DNA from: a virus
Direction: 5' to 3' (one strand)
UHGV virus genome: UHGV-1753993
Length of the DNA: 25,078 nt
Position numbers and translations under genes: made by a program. Under the pieces are notes generated by a model, which did not search any database, had not been told where the DNA came from, and saw only the letters and a program-made list of their open reading frames with translations. Shown in pieces: positions 88 to 22,095 of this stretch (positions within the stretch are counted from its first letter, which is position 1; every line of letters begins with the position of its first letter).

Positions 88-198
88 GATATATAATATG
101 TCAATAAATTTCACATACAAAAGTCTTTTCGCTTATGAAAACTACTCAACTCTGGTTTGAACGCCAGCAGTCAATCGCGGGGGGGCTCTTCGTGACAC
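88..198 (+). repeat. Family 5' module copy 1: putative promoter, leader ORF MKTTQLWFERQQSIAGG and G7 tract (179-185)
   Basis: About 110 bp nearly identical to the reverse complement of 5232-5344 and about 75 bp identical to the reverse complement of 1727-1798. Confidence 0.8.
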
Positions 199-913: not shown

Positions 914-931
914 TGAACTGCAAATGCACAC

Positions 932-963
932 AAAAAGACTCAGCAATATTGCTGAGTCTTTTT
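932..963. terminator. Bidirectional terminator: 22-nt perfect palindrome GACTCAGCAATATTGCTGAGTC flanked by A5 and T5
   Basis: Read directly; lies between convergent family genes (135-913 on + and 1790-about 1000 on -). Confidence 0.65.
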
Positions 964-1206
964 GTGTGCACTGTGACGCGCTTAATTGATGCATTCTGAG
1001 TGTAACATAGTCTGGAAATGACAGACTATTGCATGCATTGTTTAGATACTGTGTGATGTCATTTGCTGTAGGACCAGTACAGAATATCAATACATGCGAT
1101 GAATGCGCAGTGTTAATAGACTGCTGACGTAAATAGTCATTAACTTGTGCCCACTCAAGCACTGAATAGGTGCCTGAACCTGATATATCATACATTGATG
1201 CATCGC

Positions 1207-1790
1207 CTATCCATAGTGTGTTAGGGAATGCTTCGTTAATATGCGACAGCGTTTCTGCAACAGTTTGCCAGTCTGCTCGAAGTGCTGATTGTGTATTGTT
1301 TGCAATGTTATACTATACAATACTACTGCATGCATATTATCTTCATATTGTGCAGCTTCATATATCCACGGCAAGCATACAGAAGTTCCACCACACTGCA
1401 GTGATATGTCATATGAATTGCCATCGCTAACATTCGTGAGTGTGCCGCTACAGGCAGTGCCGTAATCTAATGCGCCCCATTCAGGGTCATCTGATTCAGT
1501 CTCGTGTGATACGGTAGCAAATAGTTGCAGAGCAAGTTCAGATGTGTCTGGTGACAAGCCTTTAAGCGTCATTTGAAATGTGCAATCACCTGACATGACA
1601 GGCAACATCATTGAACCAAGCAATGTGTTAGATGACATATCATATGCCTCTATGCGCAAAGGCAATGGTATATCAATGTACAGAGGCTCAGATTCACCAG
1701 CACAATAGATAGCGCAGTTAAGTGTTGTATCACGAAGAGCCCCCCCGCGATTGACTGCTGGCGTTCAAACCAGAGTTGAGTAGTTTTCAT
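1207..1790 (-). pseudogene. Variable family member 3, multiply frame-disrupted (C7 tract at 1740-1746; second frame change near 1313-1340)
   Basis: ATG at 1790 gives MKTTQLWFERQQSIAGG; body ORF 1207-1665 is in the -1 frame (..GGALRDTTLN..CLPWIYE..HAVVL); conserved C-terminal motifs (ETLSHINEAF, VLEWAQVNDY) continue in a third frame (track ORF 863-1195) that reads through the 932-963 terminator with no stop. Confidence 0.45.
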
Positions 1791-1883: not shown

Positions 1884-1924
1884 AAAAAAAAAACTCCACT
1901 GAGAATTCAGTGGAGTTTTTTTTT
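1884..1924. terminator. Bidirectional intrinsic terminator: A10, 9-bp stem CTCCACTGA / TCAGTGGAG, 4-nt loop, T9
   Basis: Read directly; immediately downstream of the stop of minus-strand gene 1945-2574. Confidence 0.75.
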
Positions 1925-1944
1925 GATGCTTCTAATGACAACTG

Positions 1945-2574
1945 TCAATAAATGCCAACTATGACATGACCACCAAGTCTATTGTTGATAGCTGTGCAAA
2001 TTGCATCAGCATCTTCATATTGCAAATTTGCAAACATAATATGTTCTGGTCCAGGTGAAGTTACACTGCCACTATTCATATGCAATTGGCGCCATTGTTC
2101 AAACATTGCAATTGCATCATCTTGGTAATCAAATCCGCCAACAAGATATGCATCAGGCGCGTATTGCCTCACATATGTTGTGGTGCCAAACTCTTCACCA
2201 AGTGCTGCTGCACCATATTCATCGCAGTCACTAATTCGAATTTGATTGCCATTTGGCAAATACTTGTTAGGATTTGCAGGATAAAACCATGGTAGCACAC
2301 CCAGTTTGTTGACACATATGTCAATGTTGTTTTTTGATGCAGGCTCACCAAATGTTACCAAACATGAGCCATTGCCCATCATGACAGTGTTTTCATGCAT
2401 GCCAACAACATATTTGGTGCCTTTTGGCTCATATGTGCTGAATGTCCATAAGCCTGTTTCAGCATCTGATTGCACTTGGTTGCTAATGTAGCCATCAACT
2501 GACCACATATTGACTGCTACAGATGGAATGTGAGCAACTTGTTCTGAGTCATAATCTCTGATGTAGCCAGACAC
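1945..2574 (-). CDS. Hypothetical protein, distant homolog of the variable family (shares LPWFY and FEQWRQLHMNSG-type motifs); start uncertain
   Basis: Track ORF (209 aa; listed start is GTG). A possible leader ATG at 2645 (MQIPRNWGGG) runs into the C11/G11 tract at 2616-2626 and is -1 out of frame with the body. Confidence 0.6.
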   Translation of the reverse strand: MSGYIRDYDSEQVAHIPSVAVNMWSVDGYISNQVQSDAETGLWTFSTYEPKGTKYVVGMHENTVMMGNGSCLVTFGEPASKNNIDICVNKLGVLPWFYPANPNKYLPNGNQIRISDCDEYGAAALGEEFGTTTYVRQYAPDAYLVGGFDYQDDAIAMFEQWRQLHMNSGSVTSPGPEHIMFANLQYEDADAICTAINNRLGGHVIVGIY

Positions 2575-2615
2575 TTCTTCTACGAATGTAGGTCCAGTTT
2601 GGAGGGCTTGTTGTG

Positions 2616-2626
2616 CCCCCCCCCCC
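2616..2626. repeat. Homopolymer C11 (G11 on the minus-strand mRNA), with adjacent AGTT forming an inverted-repeat arm
   Basis: Read directly; partner arm AACTGGGGGGGG at 2914-2925. Confidence 0.9.
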
Positions 2627-2650
2627 AGTTACGAGGGATTTGCATATGAA

Positions 2651-2836
2651 TTGAGTTTTTGAAATGAGTTGAGTTTTGATGCAAGATGCAAAAACTTTTG
2701 AGTTTTGATGCAAGATGCAAAACTTTTGAGTTTTGATGCAAGATGCAAAACTTTTGAGTTTTGATGCAAGATGCAAAACAACTAAGATGTTGTTTTGATG
2801 CAAGATGCAAAACAACTAAGATGTTGTTTTGATATG
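2651..2836. repeat. Tandem direct-repeat array: 3 units of about 28 bp (TTTTGATGCAAGATGCAAAACTTTTGAG) and 2 units of 34 bp (..AAAACAACTAAGATGTTG), plus partial units
   Basis: Read directly; each unit contains the internal duplication GATGCAA-GATGCAA; no spacers, so not a CRISPR array. Confidence 0.9.
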
Positions 2837-2913
2837 TACATATGGGCAGTCAAAATATATAAACAAACAATTTAATTTTTGAAAAACTCATAAGTTTTAT
2901 GACATTCAAATTG

Positions 2914-2925
2914 AACTGGGGGGGG
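2914..2925. repeat. AACT + homopolymer G8 (2918-2925); inverted partner of 2616-2630
   Basis: Read directly. Confidence 0.85.
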
Positions 2926-3034
2926 TCACATATCTGGCTCAATCTCTTGTTATAACGTAGGTGACATTGCATTCGATGAAAAGTTTGCAGTGTTGCTTTC
3001 ATGTCACATTGCATAACTTAAAACATCGAAACAT

Positions 3035-3463
3035 ATGGCAGTTCAAACACGTTCGGTACTCAAAACGTACTTTGAAACCGGAGATAAACCCACCTCAGCA
3101 CAATTTGGCGACCTCATTGATAGTGCGTTGATGGCTCGATATATTTGGGAGACTGCATCAACTTTTGCAGCAATGGGCAGCACAGTATATATGTCAAATG
3201 CTACTGCAGCGCAAACAATAGATATGCAAGCAGTAGAACTTGGTGAAAGCTTTGTATTCAATAGAGTTGGCGAAGCAGCTGGAATTAATTTGCTGCCAAC
3301 ATTTTCTGGCAGTGGAATTTCAAGACGTTTTGCAGCTAACTATTATGATGTATCTGCAGATTCACCAGGTGTAATGTCATATGCTGTATTGATGACAAAT
3401 ATGAGTCAAGAATTGCTGACATTAAAAGTCGCTCTTATCAACCGCGCTTTATACAACAACTAG
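3035..3463 (+). CDS. Hypothetical protein with conserved N-terminus MAVQTR.VLKTYFETGDKPT.AQFGDLIDS (tandem paralog A)
   Basis: Track ORF with ATG start; N-terminal 30 aa nearly identical to 3541-3951 at protein level but diverged at DNA level. Confidence 0.7.
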   Translation: MAVQTRSVLKTYFETGDKPTSAQFGDLIDSALMARYIWETASTFAAMGSTVYMSNATAAQTIDMQAVELGESFVFNRVGEAAGINLLPTFSGSGISRRFAANYYDVSADSPGVMSYAVLMTNMSQELLTLKVALINRALYNN

Positions 3464-3540
3464 CAGACATACTTGAATGATGAAATTGTTCGAGCTTGTC
3501 TGCAATACAATAACAGACAAACTTCAAACAATTTCATACT

Positions 3541-3951
3541 ATGGCTGTACAAACAAGAAATGTTCTCAAGACATATTTCGAGACAGGCGATAAGCCAACT
3601 GCTGCTCAATTTGGTGATTTGATTGATAGCATATTTGCTGCTAAGTTTATGATGGTATCAAGTACCAGCATTAATGCTGTGCCAAATACATTGTACAGCA
3701 TTAATGCTGGTACATCTACCGTGACAATTAATGCAAATGCGCTTGAACGCGGTGAATCATTTATAGTTGACCGTGGCACTAATGCAATTTATGCAAATGC
3801 TGACGTTGACTTTGTGCACAACAACATGGTTATGTACTCAAAAGGATATGCAAATGTCAGTGCGCCGCAAGATGATTGCATAATGTCGTACACTGCATTA
3901 CTGTGTAATGACTATGTGTTGCTTGTCAATAGGGCATACTATAGCATATAG
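3541..3951 (+). CDS. Hypothetical protein, tandem paralog B of 3035-3463
   Basis: Track ORF with ATG start; shared N-terminal domain. Confidence 0.7.
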   Translation: MAVQTRNVLKTYFETGDKPTAAQFGDLIDSIFAAKFMMVSSTSINAVPNTLYSINAGTSTVTINANALERGESFIVDRGTNAIYANADVDFVHNNMVMYSKGYANVSAPQDDCIMSYTALLCNDYVLLVNRAYYSI

Positions 3952-3975: not shown

Positions 3976-4010
3976 AAAAAATGCTCCACTGAGATTTCTC
4001 AGTGGAGCAT
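3976..4010. terminator. Terminator hairpin (14-bp stem ATGCTCCACTGAGA / TCTCAGTGGAGCAT) with A-run on the + side (T-run for the minus-strand transcript)
   Basis: Read directly; between convergent genes 3541-3951 (+) and 4036-4559 (-); stem core CTCCACTGAG is shared with the 1884-1924 terminator. Confidence 0.65.
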
Positions 4011-4035
4011 TGCTTATATGTGATGCATCTGTCAG

Positions 4036-4559
4036 TTAGCTGACTTTCTTTGCATTCTTAAGTATGATTGACACGATATCTCCATTGTTAATTTTGACAG
4101 ATGGATTTGACATTGGCAATGTAAGCTTATCACCAACGCCTAATGGATATTGCCATGCCATAGAAGTTAACAGTATGGGATTACCACCAGGGCTTGTGTT
4201 GTTAATGTTGGCATACACATTGATGTTGTAAACGTTGCCAGTACCACGGCCATCTGCTGCATAACAGCCAAAGCCAATTTTTGCAGCAAAGTTTGAGTAG
4301 TCATAAGCTTTTGGCATCATTAACGCACCAATGGCGTAAGTTTCACCACCGCGGCATTCCATCATTTTGATAGGAAAGCCTGACGTTGGTATGTTAACTG
4401 TAACATTGTCAAGCGATATTGTACCTTGTATCGCCATTGTTTCAGTAGTGCCAAAGTTGTACAATGAAGCGTCACCAATAACAAGCTGCAGGTAGACTAA
4501 TTTAGAGCCCCCCCCGCTAGCACTTGTTGACGCTCAAACCAAAATTGTGGAGTTTTCAT
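4036..4559 (-). CDS. Variable family member 4; leader MKTPQFWFERQQVLAGG (ATG 4559) offset by -1 from the body at the C8/G8 tract (4508-4515)
   Basis: Leader frame stops 3 codons after the tract; body frame opens at the tract (SGGGSKLVYLQ..) and continues to the stop at 4036; body is G/N-rich. Confidence 0.5.
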
Positions 4560-4594
4560 ATGCTATGTGTTTGAATATTGTAAGATATGTACAC

Positions 4595-5296
4595 TTAGCC
4601 AAGTGTTGTTTTATCTGTGATGAACACATGAAATATGTCAGATAGTGTTTTCACAATTATAGCGCCCTCATATATTGGCGAAACATAAGAAGCATTAGCA
4701 ATAGACCATATGCCGACATGTGTCAATTTTGCAGATAAGCTATTGCCAACTCTAAAATTAGCAGCCAAGCTATTTGCAGCTATGTTAACTGACACATTGA
4801 CATTAGATGCTACTGATGTATTGCAAATTGTTGACAGTTTAATTGCCACTGGCAACGCAGATTCAAGCATTGCGGTGCAAATGCATGTATTGCCACTGTT
4901 AGTTATTGTTACTTCGCATGATTTGAACGCTTCAATATTGACATTTAGTGTGTTGTTAGCAATATCTGCGCCATATATAAGTGTAAATGCTGCAGATGAC
5001 CAAGACATATCTGCAGCATCAGGCGTGTCAATAAGATAAAATTGTGCGTCTTTTGTTGAGCCGACTAATTGCTTATAGTCATCACCAGTTATGTAAAATG
5101 TGATGCCATCACCATTATTGCTTGTGTACAAGCCTCTTTGAAGTGTTCGCCCTGTTTCAATACAGTGTAAATAGCAAGTTAGTCCATTAACAATGTTATC
5201 AGCATTGTCACGCACGTATATGTGCACGCCTGTGTCACGAAGAGCCACCCCCGCGATTGACTGCTGGCGTTCAAACCAGAGTTGAGTAGTTTTCAT
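4595..5296 (-). CDS. Variable family member 2, intact in-frame copy (233 aa)
   Basis: Track ORF with ATG start; leader MKTTQLWFERQQSIAG then VALRDT..; tract is GGGGGTGG (T-interrupted), giving a continuous frame. Confidence 0.75.
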   Translation of the reverse strand: MKTTQLWFERQQSIAGVALRDTGVHIYVRDNADNIVNGLTCYLHCIETGRTLQRGLYTSNNGDGITFYITGDDYKQLVGSTKDAQFYLIDTPDAADMSWSSAAFTLIYGADIANNTLNVNIEAFKSCEVTITNSGNTCICTAMLESALPVAIKLSTICNTSVASNVNVSVNIAANSLAANFRVGNSLSAKLTHVGIWSIANASYVSPIYEGAIIVKTLSDIFHVFITDKTTLG

Positions 5297-5344
5297 AAGC
5301 GAAAAGACTTTTTGTATGTGAAATTTATTGACATATTATATATC
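5232..5344 (-). repeat. Family 5' module copy 2 (promoter + leader + interrupted G tract)
   Basis: Reverse complement nearly identical to 88-198 (differences: A5 vs A4 upstream of the ATG; GGGGGTGG vs GGGGGGG). Confidence 0.85.
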
Positions 5345-5416
5345 AAATCAGTGCAAATTTGATAAATTTGTAGTACAATTATCATATATCAATATAGTAT
5401 ACAAACCTCTACAACA

Positions 5417-8201: not shown

Positions 8202-8816
8202 ATGAAACATACAACATATGGACTGGGCTACATCCAGTCACCTAAAGATGACAGAGACTTGCGCTTTGACGCAAAAACTGATTTGCCACTTGTGTACAAG
8301 TTGGCTCAACTTCAAGTAGAAGACCAAGGCAGTACATCAATGTGTGCAGCTTACACAGCAGCAACAATGATTGACTGGTGGTCTTCTGTGCTGTCTATGC
8401 AAGGCAAGCTTGACATCAAAGCATTGTATGAGCGTCGTTCAAATAAGCCTCAAGAGGGCATGATTCCGCGTGACGTCTTTAAGCTGCTCAAAGCACAGCC
8501 AATCAAGATGTCAAAGGGCTCAGAACAATCGCCGATAACTGCATACAGACGTTGCTACACAATTGATGAAGTCAAATCTGCTATTGTAGCAAATGGGCCT
8601 GTATTTGTTGGCATGCTCGTAAAAGACATTGAAGCTGAGCATTTCTGGAAAGGCGATGGCAATTTTGGTGGTCATGCAGTGTCAATTGTCGGCTATACAA
8701 AAGACTCATTCATCATCAAGAATAGCTGGGGTATATCTTGGGGTGATTCCGGCTACACTACAATGCCCTTTGAAGATTTTTCAGCAATCATTGAAGCTTG
8801 GACCATTTTGAGATGA
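8202..8816 (+). CDS. Papain-like (C1-family-like) cysteine peptidase
   Basis: Catalytic-triad signatures by eye: QGSTSMCAAYT (Cys), GGHAVSIVGY (His), NSWGISWGDSGY (Asn/Trp); no signal peptide. Confidence 0.65.
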   Translation: MKHTTYGLGYIQSPKDDRDLRFDAKTDLPLVYKLAQLQVEDQGSTSMCAAYTAATMIDWWSSVLSMQGKLDIKALYERRSNKPQEGMIPRDVFKLLKAQPIKMSKGSEQSPITAYRRCYTIDEVKSAIVANGPVFVGMLVKDIEAEHFWKGDGNFGGHAVSIVGYTKDSFIIKNSWGISWGDSGYTTMPFEDFSAIIEAWTILR

Positions 8817-10847: not shown

Positions 10848-11981
10848 ATGTCACAAATTGAAAATGGACAGACCAGCAATCAGCCTCTGTCAATCTTTGA
10901 TGTCCAGCCGGACAATGTAGCAAGCTTTGCTAAGCCGGAACGTTCTGCAGGACCCGAGTTCTTTAATCCTAAGCCGCAGGATTCGCCAAAGGACAAAGTT
11001 TATCGTGCAGTTATTCGCGTATTGCCGAATTTAGCAGACCCAGCAGTACCGATTTCAATCGTTCGTTATTACTGGTTTGCAACTGGCCATAATCAGGGCT
11101 TCCGCTACAATTCGCCGAGCTCGCCTAATCCGCATCCTGAAAATCCGGAAAATTTGATGAAACCCTACGGTTGGTGTCCCATTTCGGCATTCTACTGGGA
11201 ACTCATCAATACCAAGGATGCTCAGCAGGAAGCACTTGCAAAGCGAGAGTTCAGTATGCAGAGTCAGTACACTTGCCTCGTGCAAATCAAGGCTGATTCA
11301 GTGCACCCTGAGAACGTTGGGAAAGTACTCCCATATCGACTCCCTGCTGCATTGTATAAAAGAATGCTGAGCTCAATGAAGCCGACTGACGAAGACATCC
11401 AGATGGGCGCTCAGCCTATGGACATGTTCCATCCTGTTAAGGGCCATGACATTCTCTTGAAGATTACGCTTAAAGACGTCAATGGCGTTGAAATGCGTGA
11501 CTACGAGACTTCGACGATTTCGCCCAACGTATCGTCGATGCTGCTTGCAGATGGCAGCCTTGTTGACCAGGCGAAGTATGACACTGACCCTGCATACAAG
11601 CAGCAAATCATGCAGCAGATTGTCGACATGCTCAAGGAGTACCCGAATGTCGAAAAGGAGTGGGGCTACCACGAAGCTTCTGATGACATCAAGCGTCAGG
11701 TTAAGATGCGCCTTGCTAACTACAAGGATGTGTCGGATATCTGGCCTGACATTGTCATCAATCCGTCAGCAGCTCAGCAGGCACAGACTACTCAGCCTGC
11801 ACCAGCAGCAGCTCCGGCAGCTGCGCCTGCTACTGCACCAGCAGCTCAGACAGCCATTGACCCGTTTGCAGCAGCTTCAGCACCTGCAGCAGAGCCTGTA
11901 CCTGCAGCAGCTCCAGCAGCAGCGCCTACAGCAGCAACGATGGATGCTGAAACTGAAGCATTCATCAATGGGCTCAAGTAG
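10848..11981 (+). CDS. T4 gp32-like single-stranded DNA-binding protein with a Pro/Ala-rich C-terminal linker
   Basis: Matches to T4 gp32 recalled from memory (AVIRVLPN vs AVIRFLPS; ENVGKVLPYR vs ENEGKVFKYR); distinct codon usage and higher GC than neighbours. Confidence 0.75.
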   Translation: MSQIENGQTSNQPLSIFDVQPDNVASFAKPERSAGPEFFNPKPQDSPKDKVYRAVIRVLPNLADPAVPISIVRYYWFATGHNQGFRYNSPSSPNPHPENPENLMKPYGWCPISAFYWELINTKDAQQEALAKREFSMQSQYTCLVQIKADSVHPENVGKVLPYRLPAALYKRMLSSMKPTDEDIQMGAQPMDMFHPVKGHDILLKITLKDVNGVEMRDYETSTISPNVSSMLLADGSLVDQAKYDTDPAYKQQIMQQIVDMLKEYPNVEKEWGYHEASDDIKRQVKMRLANYKDVSDIWPDIVINPSAAQQAQTTQPAPAAAPAAAPATAPAAQTAIDPFAAASAPAAEPVPAAAPAAAPTAATMDAETEAFINGLK

Positions 11982-12003: not shown

Positions 12004-12041
12004 GAGGCTCAGACAGACATTGTTTGTCTGAGCCTCTTTTT
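12004..12041 (+). terminator. Intrinsic terminator: 12-bp stem GAGGCTCAGACA / TGTCTGAGCCTC, 9-nt loop, TTTTT
   Basis: Read directly; 23 nt after the SSB stop codon. Confidence 0.75.
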
Positions 12042-12059
12042 CATTTAACAAGTCATGTC

Positions 12060-13655
12060 ATGAGACTCAAAGTCATAGGCGATTTGCTTCAGATTGTCGA
12101 AGCAAATGATTTGGAAGCCAAGCAATTATACGCTGAAGCTACTGCAGAAGTGCCAAACTTTGTTGCAGCAGCAGTCAATAAGCGCAAAGGGCGCAAAACA
12201 GATTGGAATGGGCAAATTTGCTATGTGTTTAATGGCATATACCTACCATTTGGCTTATGGAAGCGTATTTGGGACTTACAACTGCGTAAGCCAATTCCAT
12301 ACGAAGTCAAGATTGAGGGCCTCATTGACAACTTTGACCGCATTGTGTCGCTTGAAGAGCTTGAGCAATGGTCAGAATGTCTTGATATGCCATTTGACAT
12401 GCGTGACGACCAGCTCAAGTTTATTTTGACTGCTTGCAAATTCAAGAAATGTTGTTTACGCCTTGCGACTTCTTATGGCAAAACAGCTCTTGTTTATGTA
12501 ATTAGTCGCTTCTTAAAAGATAGCAAGAGAATTAATGGCAAGACGCTTATGATTGTGCCCTCGGTGCATCTCGTGTCACAAGCGTTTGACGATATTGTTG
12601 TCAGCTATCAACAAAATGAGTCAGATTTAGCAAACAAGAACTACAAACTCTACAAAATCCATTCAGGTGTTCGCAATGAGTACAAAATGCAAGATGCAGA
12701 TATGGTTGTTGGCACGTATCAAAGTCTTGTCAACATGCCGGCAGATTTTTTCGAACAGTTTGACTTCATTGTAACTGATGAAGCTCATGGTGCGCCTGCA
12801 GCGTCAATTCGTGAAATCTTTAGTCATTGCACAAAAGCTCATTATCGTCTTGGCGTATCTGGTTCATTGCCGCTTGAACATACAGCAGCTCGTTTGACAA
12901 TTGAATCATACATTGGTCCAATACTGGGCACATTTGGCGTAGCTCAAGCACTTGAAAAGAACATTGTGTCTGACTTCGAAATCAAACGAGTAGTCATTGA
13001 GCATTCAGCAGAATATGATGCGCCGTTTGTGCAGTATCTTGAAGAGCATCCTGAAGTGTTTGATAACACTGCAAGACTGCTTCCAGCAGAACAACATCAT
13101 TGCATGAACTACGTCGATGCTAACAAGCTCATTGCAAAAATTATTTGTTCGCTTGACAAAAATGCTCTTGTGCTTTGCAAACGACGAGACCATGTGCAGA
13201 ACATCTATGATGCTTGTCAAACATTCATACAGCAGTCTGGTGTTGACAAGGTTGTTCACATCATTAGAGGTGATGTACCCTTGCATGAACGCAAAGACAT
13301 GCTTGCAATGATGGAAGCAGAGCCTGACAGACACATCATGATTGCAACAACTGGCACATTATCTACAGGTGTATCTGTGCATGCTTGGTTTTACGCTGCA
13401 TTCTTGATGATTGGCAAATCTGACAACGTAACATTGCAGTCAATTGGGCGACTGTTGCGTAAGCATCCACTTAAGCAGAAAGCAATCATTCTTGATATTG
13501 CGCATAAGCTTACAATTCATAGTGACACGCTTGTCAAGCTTCGCAAAGGCTACTGCTACTGCAATTATGATATGCAGCATTTTGCTGCTCGAAAACGAAT
13601 CTATGACGCTGAAAAGATGCCAGTAGATACAAATGTGCAAAAATTCAAGCTTTGA
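12060..13655 (+). CDS. uvsW: UvsW-like SF2 DNA helicase (Walker A TSYGKT, DEAH box VTDEAHG)
   Basis: Helicase motifs read directly; N-terminal W.G.I...LPFGL and later blocks (MIVPS..SQAFDDI, VVGTYQS, LGVSGSL, QSIGRLLRKH) match T4 UvsW as recalled; start re-set from track TTG 12024 to ATG 12060. Confidence 0.8.
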   Translation: MRLKVIGDLLQIVEANDLEAKQLYAEATAEVPNFVAAAVNKRKGRKTDWNGQICYVFNGIYLPFGLWKRIWDLQLRKPIPYEVKIEGLIDNFDRIVSLEELEQWSECLDMPFDMRDDQLKFILTACKFKKCCLRLATSYGKTALVYVISRFLKDSKRINGKTLMIVPSVHLVSQAFDDIVVSYQQNESDLANKNYKLYKIHSGVRNEYKMQDADMVVGTYQSLVNMPADFFEQFDFIVTDEAHGAPAASIREIFSHCTKAHYRLGVSGSLPLEHTAARLTIESYIGPILGTFGVAQALEKNIVSDFEIKRVVIEHSAEYDAPFVQYLEEHPEVFDNTARLLPAEQHHCMNYVDANKLIAKIICSLDKNALVLCKRRDHVQNIYDACQTFIQQSGVDKVVHIIRGDVPLHERKDMLAMMEAEPDRHIMIATTGTLSTGVSVHAWFYAAFLMIGKSDNVTLQSIGRLLRKHPLKQKAIILDIAHKLTIHSDTLVKLRKGYCYCNYDMQHFAARKRIYDAEKMPVDTNVQKFKL

Positions 13656-19407: not shown

Positions 19408-20542
19408 CACATGTGTGCGTTCAGACATACAGCATCTTAAACATACAGAACCCATCGCATTTGCAGGGTTTGTGCAGACAATGTTTGATGCTGTGTATGT
19501 GTTTGGTGACCCTGAGAACAAACATGCAATACTTGATGAGCTTGTGCATGATAACGTGCATATCATCAATAACATACATGCATGGCAAGATATGCTGAAG
19601 TGCACAAAATCAGACGATTGCGCAATATTCTGGCAGGGCTCAAAGGCTGCTCTTGAACATTGCTCAGAATTTCAGCAAGATGTTCTGTGGAATGCATTCA
19701 AAGCATGGTGTTTGTCAAATGCTCGCAAATTTACGCTAACAACTGATTTGCGATTTGATTTTGACAAAGAGTGCACATTGACAAAGCGATTGCACAACTA
19801 CAAAGAGTACTTAGAATCACAAAAAGACAACATTACACATCTGTGTCAACATAAAAATCTCAAGTATGCTTGGCTTGATGAGTCTCAATGTGTGTTTGCA
19901 CCATTGCAAATCATTGCAGCAGTCAATGCATTGAAGCTTCAATATATAGAGCCAAGATTGCTTAAACGACAAGCAACAATGCAAAATGCAATTGAAGCTC
20001 ATGTGCGTAGCTTTGCTGACATAAAGCAGCAATATGCATGCTGTGCAAGTTGTGCAGGTTTCACATATCTTGACGAGTATCGTAGAAGCGTGATTGAACA
20101 ATTTGTCATACATATGCGTGATACATGTCTCATAACATCGTATATTGATGACACAATTTTGTCTGCGGTTAAATCAGCAGCACCAAACTTTACACTTAAA
20201 TACAAAGTCGCATATGACGCAATGCCTCATGTAATATCGAGGTCCGCGTACAATCTTGTAGTTGGTGATTCATTGTATGTGCAAGCAGGCTTGCTGCCAA
20301 ATCGATGGGTTGAAGGCGTACTTGCAAATTGCTGCAACATACTTGTAGATTATAAGCCAATTACCCTATTTGCTGACATTGTAGGCTTCGATGACTACGC
20401 GACATTTGCAACACTTAATAGCAAAACATGCGTACGCACTGCGCCCACAAATTTTGATGATTGCAAACAAGCACAGCAAAAAGCTCTTGCAGCAATGATT
20501 GTGCAGTGTTACACTATTCTTGAACAAACATTCAAATCATGA
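19379..20542 (+). CDS. Hypothetical protein (387 aa)
   Basis: Track ORF with ATG start; overlaps the upstream gene by 29 nt. Confidence 0.6.
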   Translation: MSKLFILKFDTCVRSDIQHLKHTEPIAFAGFVQTMFDAVYVFGDPENKHAILDELVHDNVHIINNIHAWQDMLKCTKSDDCAIFWQGSKAALEHCSEFQQDVLWNAFKAWCLSNARKFTLTTDLRFDFDKECTLTKRLHNYKEYLESQKDNITHLCQHKNLKYAWLDESQCVFAPLQIIAAVNALKLQYIEPRLLKRQATMQNAIEAHVRSFADIKQQYACCASCAGFTYLDEYRRSVIEQFVIHMRDTCLITSYIDDTILSAVKSAAPNFTLKYKVAYDAMPHVISRSAYNLVVGDSLYVQAGLLPNRWVEGVLANCCNILVDYKPITLFADIVGFDDYATFATLNSKTCVRTAPTNFDDCKQAQQKALAAMIVQCYTILEQTFKS

Positions 20543-22095
20543 GAACACATATAATTACTCAAACTGGCTACATAGACTTTTTCAATTCATTGACTTGGAA
20601 AAGTGCAGCAATGTTTGAACGAGCAAACAAAGATGACTTATTCATTGTGGTAGGCTTTGTGCCACAGATGAAAGATGTCGCAGATTGCTTGACTACATCA
20701 GGTCATCATGTCAAATATGTTGATGTGTCAGATTTTGCTCAATGTCGCATTGCTGACATTATGAAGCGTCTTGATATGTCAATGACATCTTGCAATATGA
20801 GCTACATTGCAACATTTAATATATTCAATGGCGCATGCAATTCATTTCAGCAGGCAGAACTTGATACATTTTCTGCATATTGCAAGACATTTGGTACTGC
20901 ATCAGTCAAACGTGATTTGCCGCTAATTGACGCAGCAGGCTCAGTCTACAAAGCACTCATGTATGTAGTGTATGAGATGCTGTCAGTCATTATGCAGTAC
21001 AATATTGCATTGAATGCTCGCAAGACTAATGACAAACAACAAGGCACAGTCATAAACAACTTTGTCGAAGACCCATTGCAGCACAAGCTCAATTACATTG
21101 ACTATCGCTATTCAGGACCATATGAAAGCGCATTTAGTGCATCAAAGATATTCAAAGTGCAACATTGGTACTTTCATGATTGCAATAATGTCAAAAAGCT
21201 TGGTCTTGAATACAATTCTGCATATGTATATGATGTTACAGCAGAACAAGATGCTATTGCATATTATGGATGGTGTCCATCACAGCAATACTGGTATTTG
21301 CATGGCAAAACTTGGAATGATATTGAAGTAACATTCGATGACAAGCGACTGAATTTTGTATTTGCATTGACAAATACTTGGCGAGACAAAACTGAACGCA
21401 CAGAACTCATCAACAAACTCATGCATCTGCACAATCAAGATGCAATTGACAAGGGTATTGTGTTCAGATTTTTCAGCAGAGATAAACAACAGCAGTCAAT
21501 GTCAGACAAGTTGCTGCCATATGACACATACCTTGAACTCATCAAGCATAGCAGATTCACATTGATTGTGCCGTCATATGATGCAAACTGTTTTAGTTTG
21601 CGTAGATTCTGTGAAAGCATTGTGCTTGGCTGTGTTCCACTTGTGCACAACTCATGCAAACTCTATATGTTTGACAGATGGCCACAGTTCAAACAGTTTG
21701 TCATTAAGAAGCTCATGATTAGCGATGATGACTTGCAGCATCTTGAAGACATTGTTCAGCCATATAGACATACACAATTGTTAAAAGAGTTGTGGCACAC
21801 TGATTTCATTCAGCAATATACGGGTGACTTTGTGTATGATATTGCATTGCATCTTGCATATATCAATAAAGATGTGCCAATCAAGAAGTCTTGTGACAAT
21901 TGCGACAATACACTTTCACATGAGCGCTGTGTAATTTGTGAAGCAAACAACTTTATGAGTCATGCATGGTCATGTTCATATTGCAAGTTCTGCAAGTCTG
22001 ATATGTCATGCGCACTTGATGCAGACGATGGCTCAGCCGCATGTTGCAATGGTGACAGCTTTGTGTTGAAAGAGCCATTCGTAGAAGTGCAATGA
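20539..22095 (+). CDS. Putative glycosyltransferase (exostosin/GT47-like motif) with Cys-rich C-terminal tail
   Basis: Motif YDTYLELIKHSRFTLIVPSYDANCFSLRRFCESIVLGCVPLV resembles the F[CT]LxP.G...R..E.L..GC[IV]P signature; C-terminal CDNCDN..CVIC..CSYCKFC cluster; ATGA overlap at start. Confidence 0.6.
   Translation: MRTHIITQTGYIDFFNSLTWKSAAMFERANKDDLFIVVGFVPQMKDVADCLTTSGHHVKYVDVSDFAQCRIADIMKRLDMSMTSCNMSYIATFNIFNGACNSFQQAELDTFSAYCKTFGTASVKRDLPLIDAAGSVYKALMYVVYEMLSVIMQYNIALNARKTNDKQQGTVINNFVEDPLQHKLNYIDYRYSGPYESAFSASKIFKVQHWYFHDCNNVKKLGLEYNSAYVYDVTAEQDAIAYYGWCPSQQYWYLHGKTWNDIEVTFDDKRLNFVFALTNTWRDKTERTELINKLMHLHNQDAIDKGIVFRFFSRDKQQQSMSDKLLPYDTYLELIKHSRFTLIVPSYDANCFSLRRFCESIVLGCVPLVHNSCKLYMFDRWPQFKQFVIKKLMISDDDLQHLEDIVQPYRHTQLLKELWHTDFIQQYTGDFVYDIALHLAYINKDVPIKKSCDNCDNTLSHERCVICEANNFMSHAWSCSYCKFCKSDMSCALDADDGSAACCNGDSFVLKEPFVEVQ

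Follow-up and report, generated by a model that had tools for sequence, protein, structure and literature searches.

Contingency switching by homopolymeric runs has been recognised in phages only recently. Hypermutable polyG tracts occur within genes of the Campylobacter phages of the Fletchervirus group (Sorensen et al. 2021, Cell Rep 35:109214, via PMC10877375), and contingency loci have also been described from the coliphages T2 and T4 (Gomez, Barrick & Waters 2025 preprint, PMC12633550). Further elements of T4-type phages that bear on the present case are the PeSLs, which are mobile regulatory cassettes of the hyperplastic regions (Arbiol et al. 2010, PMC2839356), the iteron-like 12-nucleotide (nt) repeats of T4 oriE (Kreuzer & Brister 2010, PMC3016281) and the capsid targeting sequence MKTYQEFIAE of the T4 internal proteins (PMC8442874; PMC3012670). 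The locus considered here lies at positions 2616-2925 of a 25,078-nt stretch of the virus genome UHGV-1753993 (this whole stretch is referred to as the window) and comprises a tandem array of short units situated between a C-run and a G-run (Table 1). We favour, with moderate confidence, a composite explanation in which it is the shared upstream control region of two divergent leader cassettes, with the runs serving as switches and the array as a dial.

The two runs, C11 and G8, contain a pair of perfectly complementary 12-mers, CCCCCCCCAGTT (2619-2630) and AACTGGGGGGGG (2914-2925), which have 283 nt between them and are extendable to 13/14; C or G runs of at least 8 are expected 0.00 times in shuffled sequences. 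These complementary arms had been recognised in the original prediction, and as a pair they are real, but they are not unique, since the window has five G/C runs of at least 7, all of which are in its first 5 kb and in leaders of the same kind. The set of G/C run lengths in the window (5, 5, 7, 7, 8, 8, 11) skips 6, indicating that the runs constitute a designed class rather than chance occurrences. When read on its own coding strand, each arm is a poly-G run 19 nt downstream of an ATG, and both conform to a common module, ATG-N12-AACT-Gn-(T)CACA, in divergent orientation. Each arm is the junction of a conserved leader of 7 amino acids (aa), with the pattern xxxxxNW, and a downstream frame, and a third copy of this NW type, MNITMNW-GGG, is found at another locus in the related genome L048. 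Two divergent copies of one coding leader module therefore suffice to generate the inverted repeat and nothing more is needed: the arms are the same element in opposite orientations and not a structural bracket. More generally, what looks like a bracketing inverted repeat can arise simply because a coding module is present in two divergent copies. It had also been proposed that the arms lie in an intergenic region between divergent genes at 1945-2574 (-) and 3035-3463 (+). The divergent non-coding stretch is real, yet it is confined to 2646-2898 (253 bp, 28.5% GC), as leader open reading frames (ORFs) starting from the ATGs at 2645 (-) and 2899 (+) cross both homopolymers.

The length of each run determines what its leader is joined to. 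With the G11 of the window the leftward ATG is out of frame and yields only 21 aa, whereas G9 or G12 would give a protein of 232/233 aa; the leftward cargo gene is thus predicted to be switched off in the window. No Pfam or PHROG match was obtained for this cargo, and among 5.8 and 1.8 billion proteins searched the only homologue clusters recovered were P0001 (98% identity) and one weak match. The rightward leader ORF would extend with G7 or G10 to 38-39 aa, with its stop at 3012-3014, 20 nt before the next gene, and this long frame is the one found in most lineages, by virtue of G7, G10 or an interrupted G5AG4.

Run lengths and unit numbers were read from consensus assemblies of about 13 related loci, with up to 25 kb per genome; the scaffold L061, which contains Ns, was uninformative. 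Comparisons of near-identical genomes bear directly on the mutability of the runs. The window and L064 are alike over 5430 bp with 0 mismatches and 1 gap, which is in the left arm (C11/C10). Similarly, L049/L051 and L049/L050 show 0 mismatches and 1 gap each over about 5.4 kb, in both cases in a run of the second leader type described below (MKT type), and L058/L059 show 0 mismatches and 2 gaps over 4006 bp, both of them in runs (G7/G6 and C10/C9). L059 and L060 differ by a run indel and the loss of two type B array units. Run lengths are hence the sole differences over 4-5.5 kb within the groups window/L064, L058/L059 and L049/L050/L051, in agreement with the earlier suggestion that the arms are slippage sites. 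Across lineages the left arm is C9, C10, C11 or C7AC2 and the right arm G7, G8, G9, G10 or G5AG4, and NW-type runs, including both arms, are seen in all three phases, the in-frame one among them. These comparisons indicate that the runs probably mutate by single-base slippage far faster than the rest of the genome. Because the frame of the downstream ORF relative to the leader shifts with each change of length, it is highly probable that the arms are hypermutable frame switches of the contingency-locus type; a tract at the 5' end of the coding sequence, length polymorphism between otherwise identical genomes and a resulting shift of the ORF frame were all found. That the differences are instead sequencing or assembly artefacts and all cassettes are in reality intact might be considered, given that homopolymers are error-prone and the differences are all single-base run indels. 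This is very unlikely: the contig names (k119_, k127_, k141_, scaffold_) suggest short-read assemblers, which are reliable for runs of 6-8 nt, A/T runs of 7 are present within intact ORFs and long genes are unbroken, the same out-of-frame lengths recur in independent samples, and interrupted in-frame variants exist.

Six leader cassettes, of the NW and MKT types, are present in the first 5.4 kb of the window, and in all the long ones the cargo frame extends without a stop as far back as the run, through which a run of the right length connects it to the leader ATG. The MKT-type cassette at 4595-5296, with its interrupted run, appears to be a natural 'locked-on' control in which leader and cargo form one protein; its orthologues in L013 and L048 have G7 and are out of frame. 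In the leftward cassette of L012/L059, G9 is in frame and gives 118 aa (L058, at G10, has 35 aa); the MQIPRNW leader, together with the adjoining GCACAACAAGCCCTCCAA (AQQALQ), is joined there to a cargo other than that of the window. In L048, MNITMNW-G7 is in frame and gives 165 aa. These in-frame cases together argue that leader and cargo constitute one protein. The four consecutive synonymous differences between two MKT leaders, which preserve the sequence ERQQ, further indicate that the MKT leader peptide is under selection.

The MKT leaders are fused to unrelated cargos, of which only cargos 1 and 2 are homologous (37% identity). A cargo beginning SKLVY (SKLVYLQLVIGDAS) carries an MKT leader in the window (4440-4620, minus strand) and the NW leader MNITMNW in L048 (9600-9760). 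As the leader-swapped segment ends exactly at the run, the poly-G run is also a recombination joint, and the earlier suggestion that the arms serve as recombination sites is thereby borne out. A module of ~110-130 bp recurs at ~87-198, 1726-1853 and 5231-5357 in both orientations with 86-98% identity and has the layout TATATAAT...AATAAATTT...TTTCGCTT-ATG-leader-run. Hairpins sharing the stem CTCCACTGAG...CTCAGTGGAG are found at 1885-1925 and 3980-4011 as bidirectional terminators; the first (1884-1925) is bordered by A10 and T9, and the stem recurs in relatives. All genes from 5.4 kb rightward are on the plus strand, as opposed to the first 5.4 kb, which is a patchwork of small genes in opposite orientations separated by strong bidirectional hairpin terminators and constitutes an accessory-gene (hyperplastic) region. 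The repeated module and the stem-loop terminators thus surround small accessory ORFs as in PeSLs, though the promoter of the module is putative here. In both systems small ORFans in a variable region have a repeated regulatory module in front of them and common stem-loop terminators behind them (PMC2839356), and insertion, deletion or replacement between close relatives takes place at module borders. In the present case, when compared with L045 (1565-1680), the window (914-1010) carries a ~1.66-kb insertion at about 1010-2672 with two leftward cassettes; it is bordered exactly by the upstream terminator region on one side and by the left edge of the array on the other, and other lineages have other inserts at this point. 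Unlike the PeSLs, which are without a homopolymer switch or a tandem array, the module here reaches into the coding sequence by including the leader and the poly-G run.

The modular nature of the arms also bears on the notion that the two runs work as inverted repeats, either by forming a long-range stem or cruciform or by marking the ends of an invertible promoter flipped by a recombinase. Members of Bacteroides, and thereby the probable host phylum, are known for invertible promoters, the 12-bp match is perfect, and the single-strand minimum-free-energy fold does pair the arms. However, both the leftward cassette and the left arm are missing from L013 and L045, and L056 has only a leader remnant with CTCCACACTC replacing the run, yet all three retain the array and the right-hand module; in L013 and L045 the leftward 5' flank is also missing and the array directly adjoins other sequence. 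The persistence of the array without a left C-run in these three genomes is the reason why the bracket or large stem of the original prediction fails. Moreover, neither the segment between the arms nor the array is inverted in any of the about 13 loci, the two arms change in length independently of each other (C9-11 versus G7-10), a scan of neighbouring ORFs revealed no recombinase, and the arms are fully accounted for as two copies of the coding leader module. We therefore regard a function as inverted repeats as extremely unlikely.

The array itself agrees with its earlier description as units of about 28 and 34 bp with a doubled GATGCAA. Tandem Repeats Finder recovered it as two overlapping tracts, 2669-2812 (period 28, 4.9 copies, score 208) and 2758-2833 (period 34, 2.2 copies, 100% match). 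The 22-nt core GTTTTGATGCAAGATGCAAAAC has 5 copies at no more than 1 mismatch, versus 0.01 expected from shuffles, and contains GATGCAA twice. The units are set apart only by their spacers, which are TTTTGA in type A and AACTAAGATGTT in type B. In each case the core ends form a palindrome with the spacer: CAAAACT-TTTG-AGTTTTG in type A and CAAAACAAC-TAAGAT-GTTGTTTTG in type B. The single-strand fold of the array region is far better than that of shuffled sequences (z = -6.3). The array is unique within the 25 kb and within the fetched parts of the relatives, no Rfam family matched it, a search with a core 20-mer in 596 Gb of genomes gave two single matches (about the chance expectation), and pattern scans of other viral contigs gave single chance matches only.

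Unit number varies between strains, as had been anticipated, from 2 to 5 across the about 13 related loci, and two B units have been deleted between near-identical genomes. The order of unit types varies as well, with three to four spacer types in all: A' A A B B (window, L064), B' B B A A (L058/L059), B' A A (L060), B B (L013), A A B... (L045, where the contig ends in the array), C B (L049-L052), B A'' (L055), A A' (L056), A Binv A (L057), A* B B* (L063) and degenerate units in L062. The palindrome with the core ends is preserved whatever the type of spacer. Binv of L057 (AACATCTTAGTT) is a B spacer in which the hairpin loop has been exactly reverse-complemented, and C is Binv minus one base. 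Such exact loop inversion points to template switching within the hairpin, and this suggests that the hairpins arise while the DNA is being replicated and are the cause of the array's instability. The array is, in sum, an unstable, hairpin-forming, non-coding minisatellite.

Several other interpretations of the array were considered and rejected. A coding role is contradicted by the plus strand, which has TGA twice per unit, and by the 28-bp period, which is not a multiple of 3 and rotates the frame. It is not a CRISPR array, as the 'spacers' are only 6-12 nt and belong to three or four recurring types, and no Rfam match was obtained. GATGCAA does not appear to be a genome-wide operator, with 23 occurrences against 15.3 expected, 10 of them in the array, and no enrichment outside it. 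The 12-bp perfect palindrome ATATGTACATAT, which overlaps the terminal half unit, is likewise weakened as an operator: the L049-L052 lineage has ATAAGTATATATG instead, and on account of this lack of conservation the palindrome is probably not essential. Read on the minus strand, the A units contain neither an ATG nor, in any frame, a stop codon. Public gene calls for the leftward cargo (248, 289 and 163 aa) begin at non-ATG codons inside the array. They reach into it because the G10 state leaves the cargo frame open through the minus-strand A units, and the 248- and 289-aa calls (P0001 and L064) appear to be gene-calling artefacts that stem from the G10 frame.

The rightward module has a constant order of array, TATATAA block, poly-G mini-ORF and two tail-fibre-like genes. 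The block GCAGTCAAAATATATAAA, directly downstream of the array, is invariant in every lineage aligned, and the segment between it and the leader ATG carries indels across lineages. Of the 4 TATATAA sequences in the 25 kb, 3 are 38-41 nt upstream of leader ATGs, so that the block is likely to be the -10 promoter region of this cassette class. The tail-fibre-like family has 60 homologues with 39-91% identity and a variable head of ~100 residues. An AlphaFold2 model of the first protein (3035-3463; predicted local distance difference test score, pLDDT, 88.8) recovered 76 BFVD matches at E<=1e-3, those with names being tail fibre, receptor-binding and minor tail proteins; the best PDB match was weak (T4 gp10, E = 0.12), and a phage tail-collar domain is found in distant sequence relatives. 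The products of 3035-3463 and 3541-3951 are probably host-recognition proteins. Among 30 viral loci from more distant phages, none had an array upstream of its homologous tail-fibre-like genes. The 5' ends of the two genes (3035-3136 and 3541-3642), which encode the invariant N-terminus, are near-identical. In several independent assemblies (L058, L059 and L060) the contigs break at the 5' ends of these paralogues, probably due to the repeat between them.

Under the composite explanation, slippage in the runs would cause the set of expressed cassettes to vary among the progeny. Located between about -45 and -210 with respect to the promoter-like block, the array would act in cis on the transcription of the flanking cassettes, either by offering a regulator several sites to bind or through an effect on spacing or structure, such that unit number could provide a 'dial' beside the on/off poly-G 'switches'. 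The run in the right mini-ORF might additionally tune the translation of the tail-fibre-like genes, given that the distance from the end of this upstream ORF to their start is either 20 nt or about 80 nt. Switch and dial together would diversify the expression of host-recognition and accessory proteins within the phage population. The regulatory role of the array is the more tentative part of this proposal, to which we would assign somewhat less than even confidence. It is reinforced by the presence of the array in every related lineage with at least 2 units, its position and orientation with respect to the rightward module being constant irrespective of the sequence on its left. The rheostats of Haemophilus influenzae offer a bacterial parallel: TA repeats separate the divergent promoters of hifA and hifB, 7-bp repeats precede hmw, and there too repeat number varies in a promoter region adjoining surface or host-interaction genes, beside coding-region switches. 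Those units are of 2-7 bp and alter promoter spacing, in contrast to the 28-34-bp units here, which have an internal doublet and hairpin junctions and a putative effect on expression.

Certain observations weigh against this explanation. In the case of the switches, the uninterrupted MKT-type runs, of which there are about 24 observations from at least 8 lineages (window, L012, L013, L045-L060), are all out of frame and mostly one G short (G7 where G8 is needed), although random switching predicts about one third in frame. It may be that the 'off' state is favoured and G7 is a mutational sink. Alternatively, as this pattern is not predicted by free switching, another mechanism of expression may operate. 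One such mechanism is recoding, whereby the out-of-frame runs would be sites of -1 ribosomal frameshifting on G_GGG_GGG or of RNA-polymerase slippage and the one-G-short state would be the working design; the runs of the one-G-short MKT cassettes are indeed in the X_XXY_YYZ phase (GC G GGG GGG), and most of the MKT runs are exactly -1. Against this, the same cassette has G7/G6 or G8/G7 in near-identical genomes and would require different shifts, the sequence diverges about 12 nt past the run and contains no conserved downstream stimulatory structure, the NW-type runs occupy all phases, and a frame-restoring interrupted run exists. We accordingly consider recoding improbable.

In the case of the dial, a sigma-70-type scan found 18 sites versus 20.6 expected in shuffles, with no clear -35 element, no Bacteroidota-type -7/-33 promoter is evident, and no DNA-binding protein was identified among the nearby ORFs scanned. 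The GATGCAA doublet was not found elsewhere in the 25 kb. The cores have substitutions in L062 and L063, and the constraint on the core is therefore not strict; further, the flanks of the lineages diverge by only 2-8%, due to which conservation alone proves little. The same facts are accommodated by a neutral or selfish minisatellite in which palindromic junctions cause slippage and template switching and only the poly-G runs are functional. Persistence would then be due to regeneration, in line with the differences in unit number and order between near-identical genomes, the template-switch signature of the loop inversion, the degenerate cores of L062 and L063, the heptamer without a second site in 25 kb and the want of arrays in the 30 distant phage loci. 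A neutral element would, however, hardly be expected never to have been lost from its fixed place and orientation, nor to show an identical core in most of the ~35 units seen across lineages when the neighbouring segment between block and ATG carries indels. We regard neutrality as unlikely on balance, though the most substantial of the alternatives to the composite explanation.

The wider genomic setting is that of a T4-like phage. The window encodes a gp32-like single-stranded DNA-binding protein (SSB; 10848-11981), a UvsW-like helicase (12024-13655) whose relatives come from T4-type phages of many hosts, and a papain-like peptidase. A megablast search of 50,697 phage records with 1900-3500 found no phage DNA match. 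Close relatives are ~175-kb contigs from gut metagenomes, whose neighbouring genes have BACON-like domains. Based on the SSB and helicase genes and these relatives, the phage is a ~175-kb T4-like phage from gut metagenomes, the host of which is probably a gut member of the Bacteroidota.

This setting, with the SSB and helicase genes 8-10 kb away, lends some appeal to the array as an iteron-type replication origin, which the original prediction had put forward beside a regulatory array and in which an initiator would bind the cores and open the adjacent AT-rich stretch. The five direct repeats of the core indeed adjoin a 65-bp stretch (2834-2898) with 21.5% GC versus 40.4% for the window, the zone of divergent transcription is comparable to that of T4 oriE/F/G, of which oriE has a cluster of direct repeats of its own (PMC3016281), and the cumulative GC skew of L013 reaches a broad minimum about 1.3 kb left of the array. 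Yet the skew shows no inflection at the array itself within 20-25 kb, the spacing of 28/29/34 bp is irregular and lineage-dependent with a copy number of 2-5, and there is no adjacent initiator gene, the flanks being ORFan cargo (variable or absent) and tail-fibre-like genes. For oriE too no link of the repeats to origin activity is established (PMC3016281), and in both cases the role is putative; unlike the array, with its palindromic junctions and strain-variable number, the T4 repeats are evenly spaced. We find an origin distinctly improbable.

The MKT leaders raise an additional, rather unlikely possibility, namely that the leaders are sorting or processing signals sending unrelated cargos into the virion or onto the tail, with the run as both gate and splice point and the array as a dial. 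The leaders MKTTQLWFER and MKTPQFWFER (135-164, 1761-1790, 4530-4559 and 5267-5296) resemble the T4 capsid targeting sequence MKTYQEFIAE in being short, N-terminal, beginning with MKT.Q and residing on unrelated, diverse accessory proteins; this likeness extends to about 5/10 residues, is based on sequence alone and concerns the MKT and not the NW leaders. Both leader types end in Gly-Gly(-Gly). If so, the run might be a hypermutable or slippage-decoded gate by which each progeny phage receives a different subset of cargos and tail fibres, as well as a universal splice point at which leaders and cargos recombine, and the array would be a copy-number 'dial' for the cassette that drives the receptor-binding genes. 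Such an arrangement, if true, would amount to a modular system dedicated to bet-hedging, carried by an abundant lineage of gut phages and kept mostly 'off' at the population level.

Returning to the switches of the composite explanation, the closest parallels are in other phages. As described via PMC10877375, the Campylobacter phages are likewise lytic myoviruses with coding poly-G runs, whose length changes switch proteins and give mixed progeny. Relative to that description, the runs here are distinct in being fixed at the junction of a portable leader and unrelated cargos, with six cassettes in 5.4 kb and one associated with an array, and in the probable gut Bacteroidota host as opposed to Campylobacter, which is itself a polyG switcher. 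The T2/T4 loci share with the present ones a T4-type genome, reversible slippage frameshifts, a proposed role in bet-hedging and an enrichment for hypothetical or accessory genes (PMC12633550). Those loci are scattered runs of at least 6 in ordinary genes, as against a leader-plus-run module with runs of up to 11-12 here; and repeats were under-represented in the tail-fibre genes of T2/T4 (PMC12633550), whereas here a run-containing mini-ORF precedes tail-fibre-like genes. The new aspects are that the run belongs to a portable leader module at the leader-cargo junction, where it doubles as a recombination joint, and that these modules are clustered, one of them being joined to a copy-number-variable array upstream of receptor-binding-like genes. 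Homopolymer switching is here encountered in an organised form in an uncultured T4-like phage of several human or animal gut metagenomes, with the leader-plus-poly-G module present on at least 6 unrelated accessory genes and upstream of a diversified tail-fibre-like family. If the runs and array do set the proteins of each virion, one genotype could maintain a mixed population for different hosts or defences. There is also a consequence for annotation, in that these genes are systematically mis-called as truncated or with odd start codons.

Table 1. Coordinates of the features of the locus, of the further leader cassettes of the window and of gene calls in related genomes
Feature	Position	Strand	Remarks
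MKT-type leader MKTTQLWFERQQSIAGG, G7	135-185	+	out of frame; G8 gives 259 aa
MKT-type leader, G7	1740-1790	-	out of frame; G8 gives 194 aa
Leftward cargo ORF	1945-2615	-	ORFan; open from run to stop codon
Left arm poly-G (C11 on plus strand)	2616-2626	-	junction of leftward leader and cargo ORF
Leftward NW-type leader	2627-2645	-	ATG CAA ATC CCT CGT AAC T(GG) = MQIPRNW
Leftward leader 5' flank, short	2646-2672	-	only in lineages with leftward cassette; absent in L013, L045
Whole array	2673-2833	no strand	A' A A B B + half unit; unit = core GTTTTGATGCAAGATGCAAAAC + spacer
Unit 1	2673-2701		29 bp; cut at each GTTTTGAT
Unit 2	2702-2729		28 bp
Unit 3	2730-2757		28 bp
Unit 4	2758-2791		34 bp
Unit 5	2792-2825		34 bp
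Terminal half unit GTTTTGAT	2826-2833		
12-bp perfect palindrome ATATGTACATAT	2832-2843		overlaps terminal half unit
Invariant block GCAGTCAAAATATATAAAC with TATATAA	2846-2864	+	about 40 nt upstream of rightward leader ATG
Rightward NW-type leader ORF	2899-2955	+	MTFKLNW-GG..., 18 aa in window
Right arm poly-G, G8	2918-2925	+	relatives: G7, G8, G9, G10 or GGGGGAGGGG
First tail-fibre-like / receptor-binding-like small protein (MAVQTR...)	3035-3463	+	invariant 34-aa N-terminus
Second tail-fibre-like paralogue	3541-3951	+	44% identity to first; in same alignment
MKT-type leader MKTPQFWFERQQVLAGG, G8	4508-4559	-	out of frame; G9 gives 174 aa
MKT-type leader, interrupted run GGGGGTGG	4595-5296	-	in frame, 233-aa cargo
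Public gene call starting in array, L049	3001-3747		
Public gene call starting in array, L064	1412-2281		
Public gene call starting in array, L060	2813-3304		

Elsewhere in the window neither tRNA nor tmRNA genes were found, and no Rfam family scored at the gathering threshold. The peptidase at 8202-8816 is a papain-family (C1/C39-like) cysteine peptidase amid early or replication genes, which is unusual for a phage; considered as a potential Gly-Gly leader protease, it gave a generic papain-family match only. The protein encoded at 20539-22095 (518 aa) has a weak sub-threshold match to exostosin/GT47 glycosyltransferases (E = 1.2e-5, under the Pfam cut-off). An imperfect tandem repeat of GCAGCAGC-type codons, rich in GC (about 50%), is found in the C-terminal part of the gp32-like SSB gene (11795-11936) and corresponds to an Ala/Pro-rich low-complexity tail.

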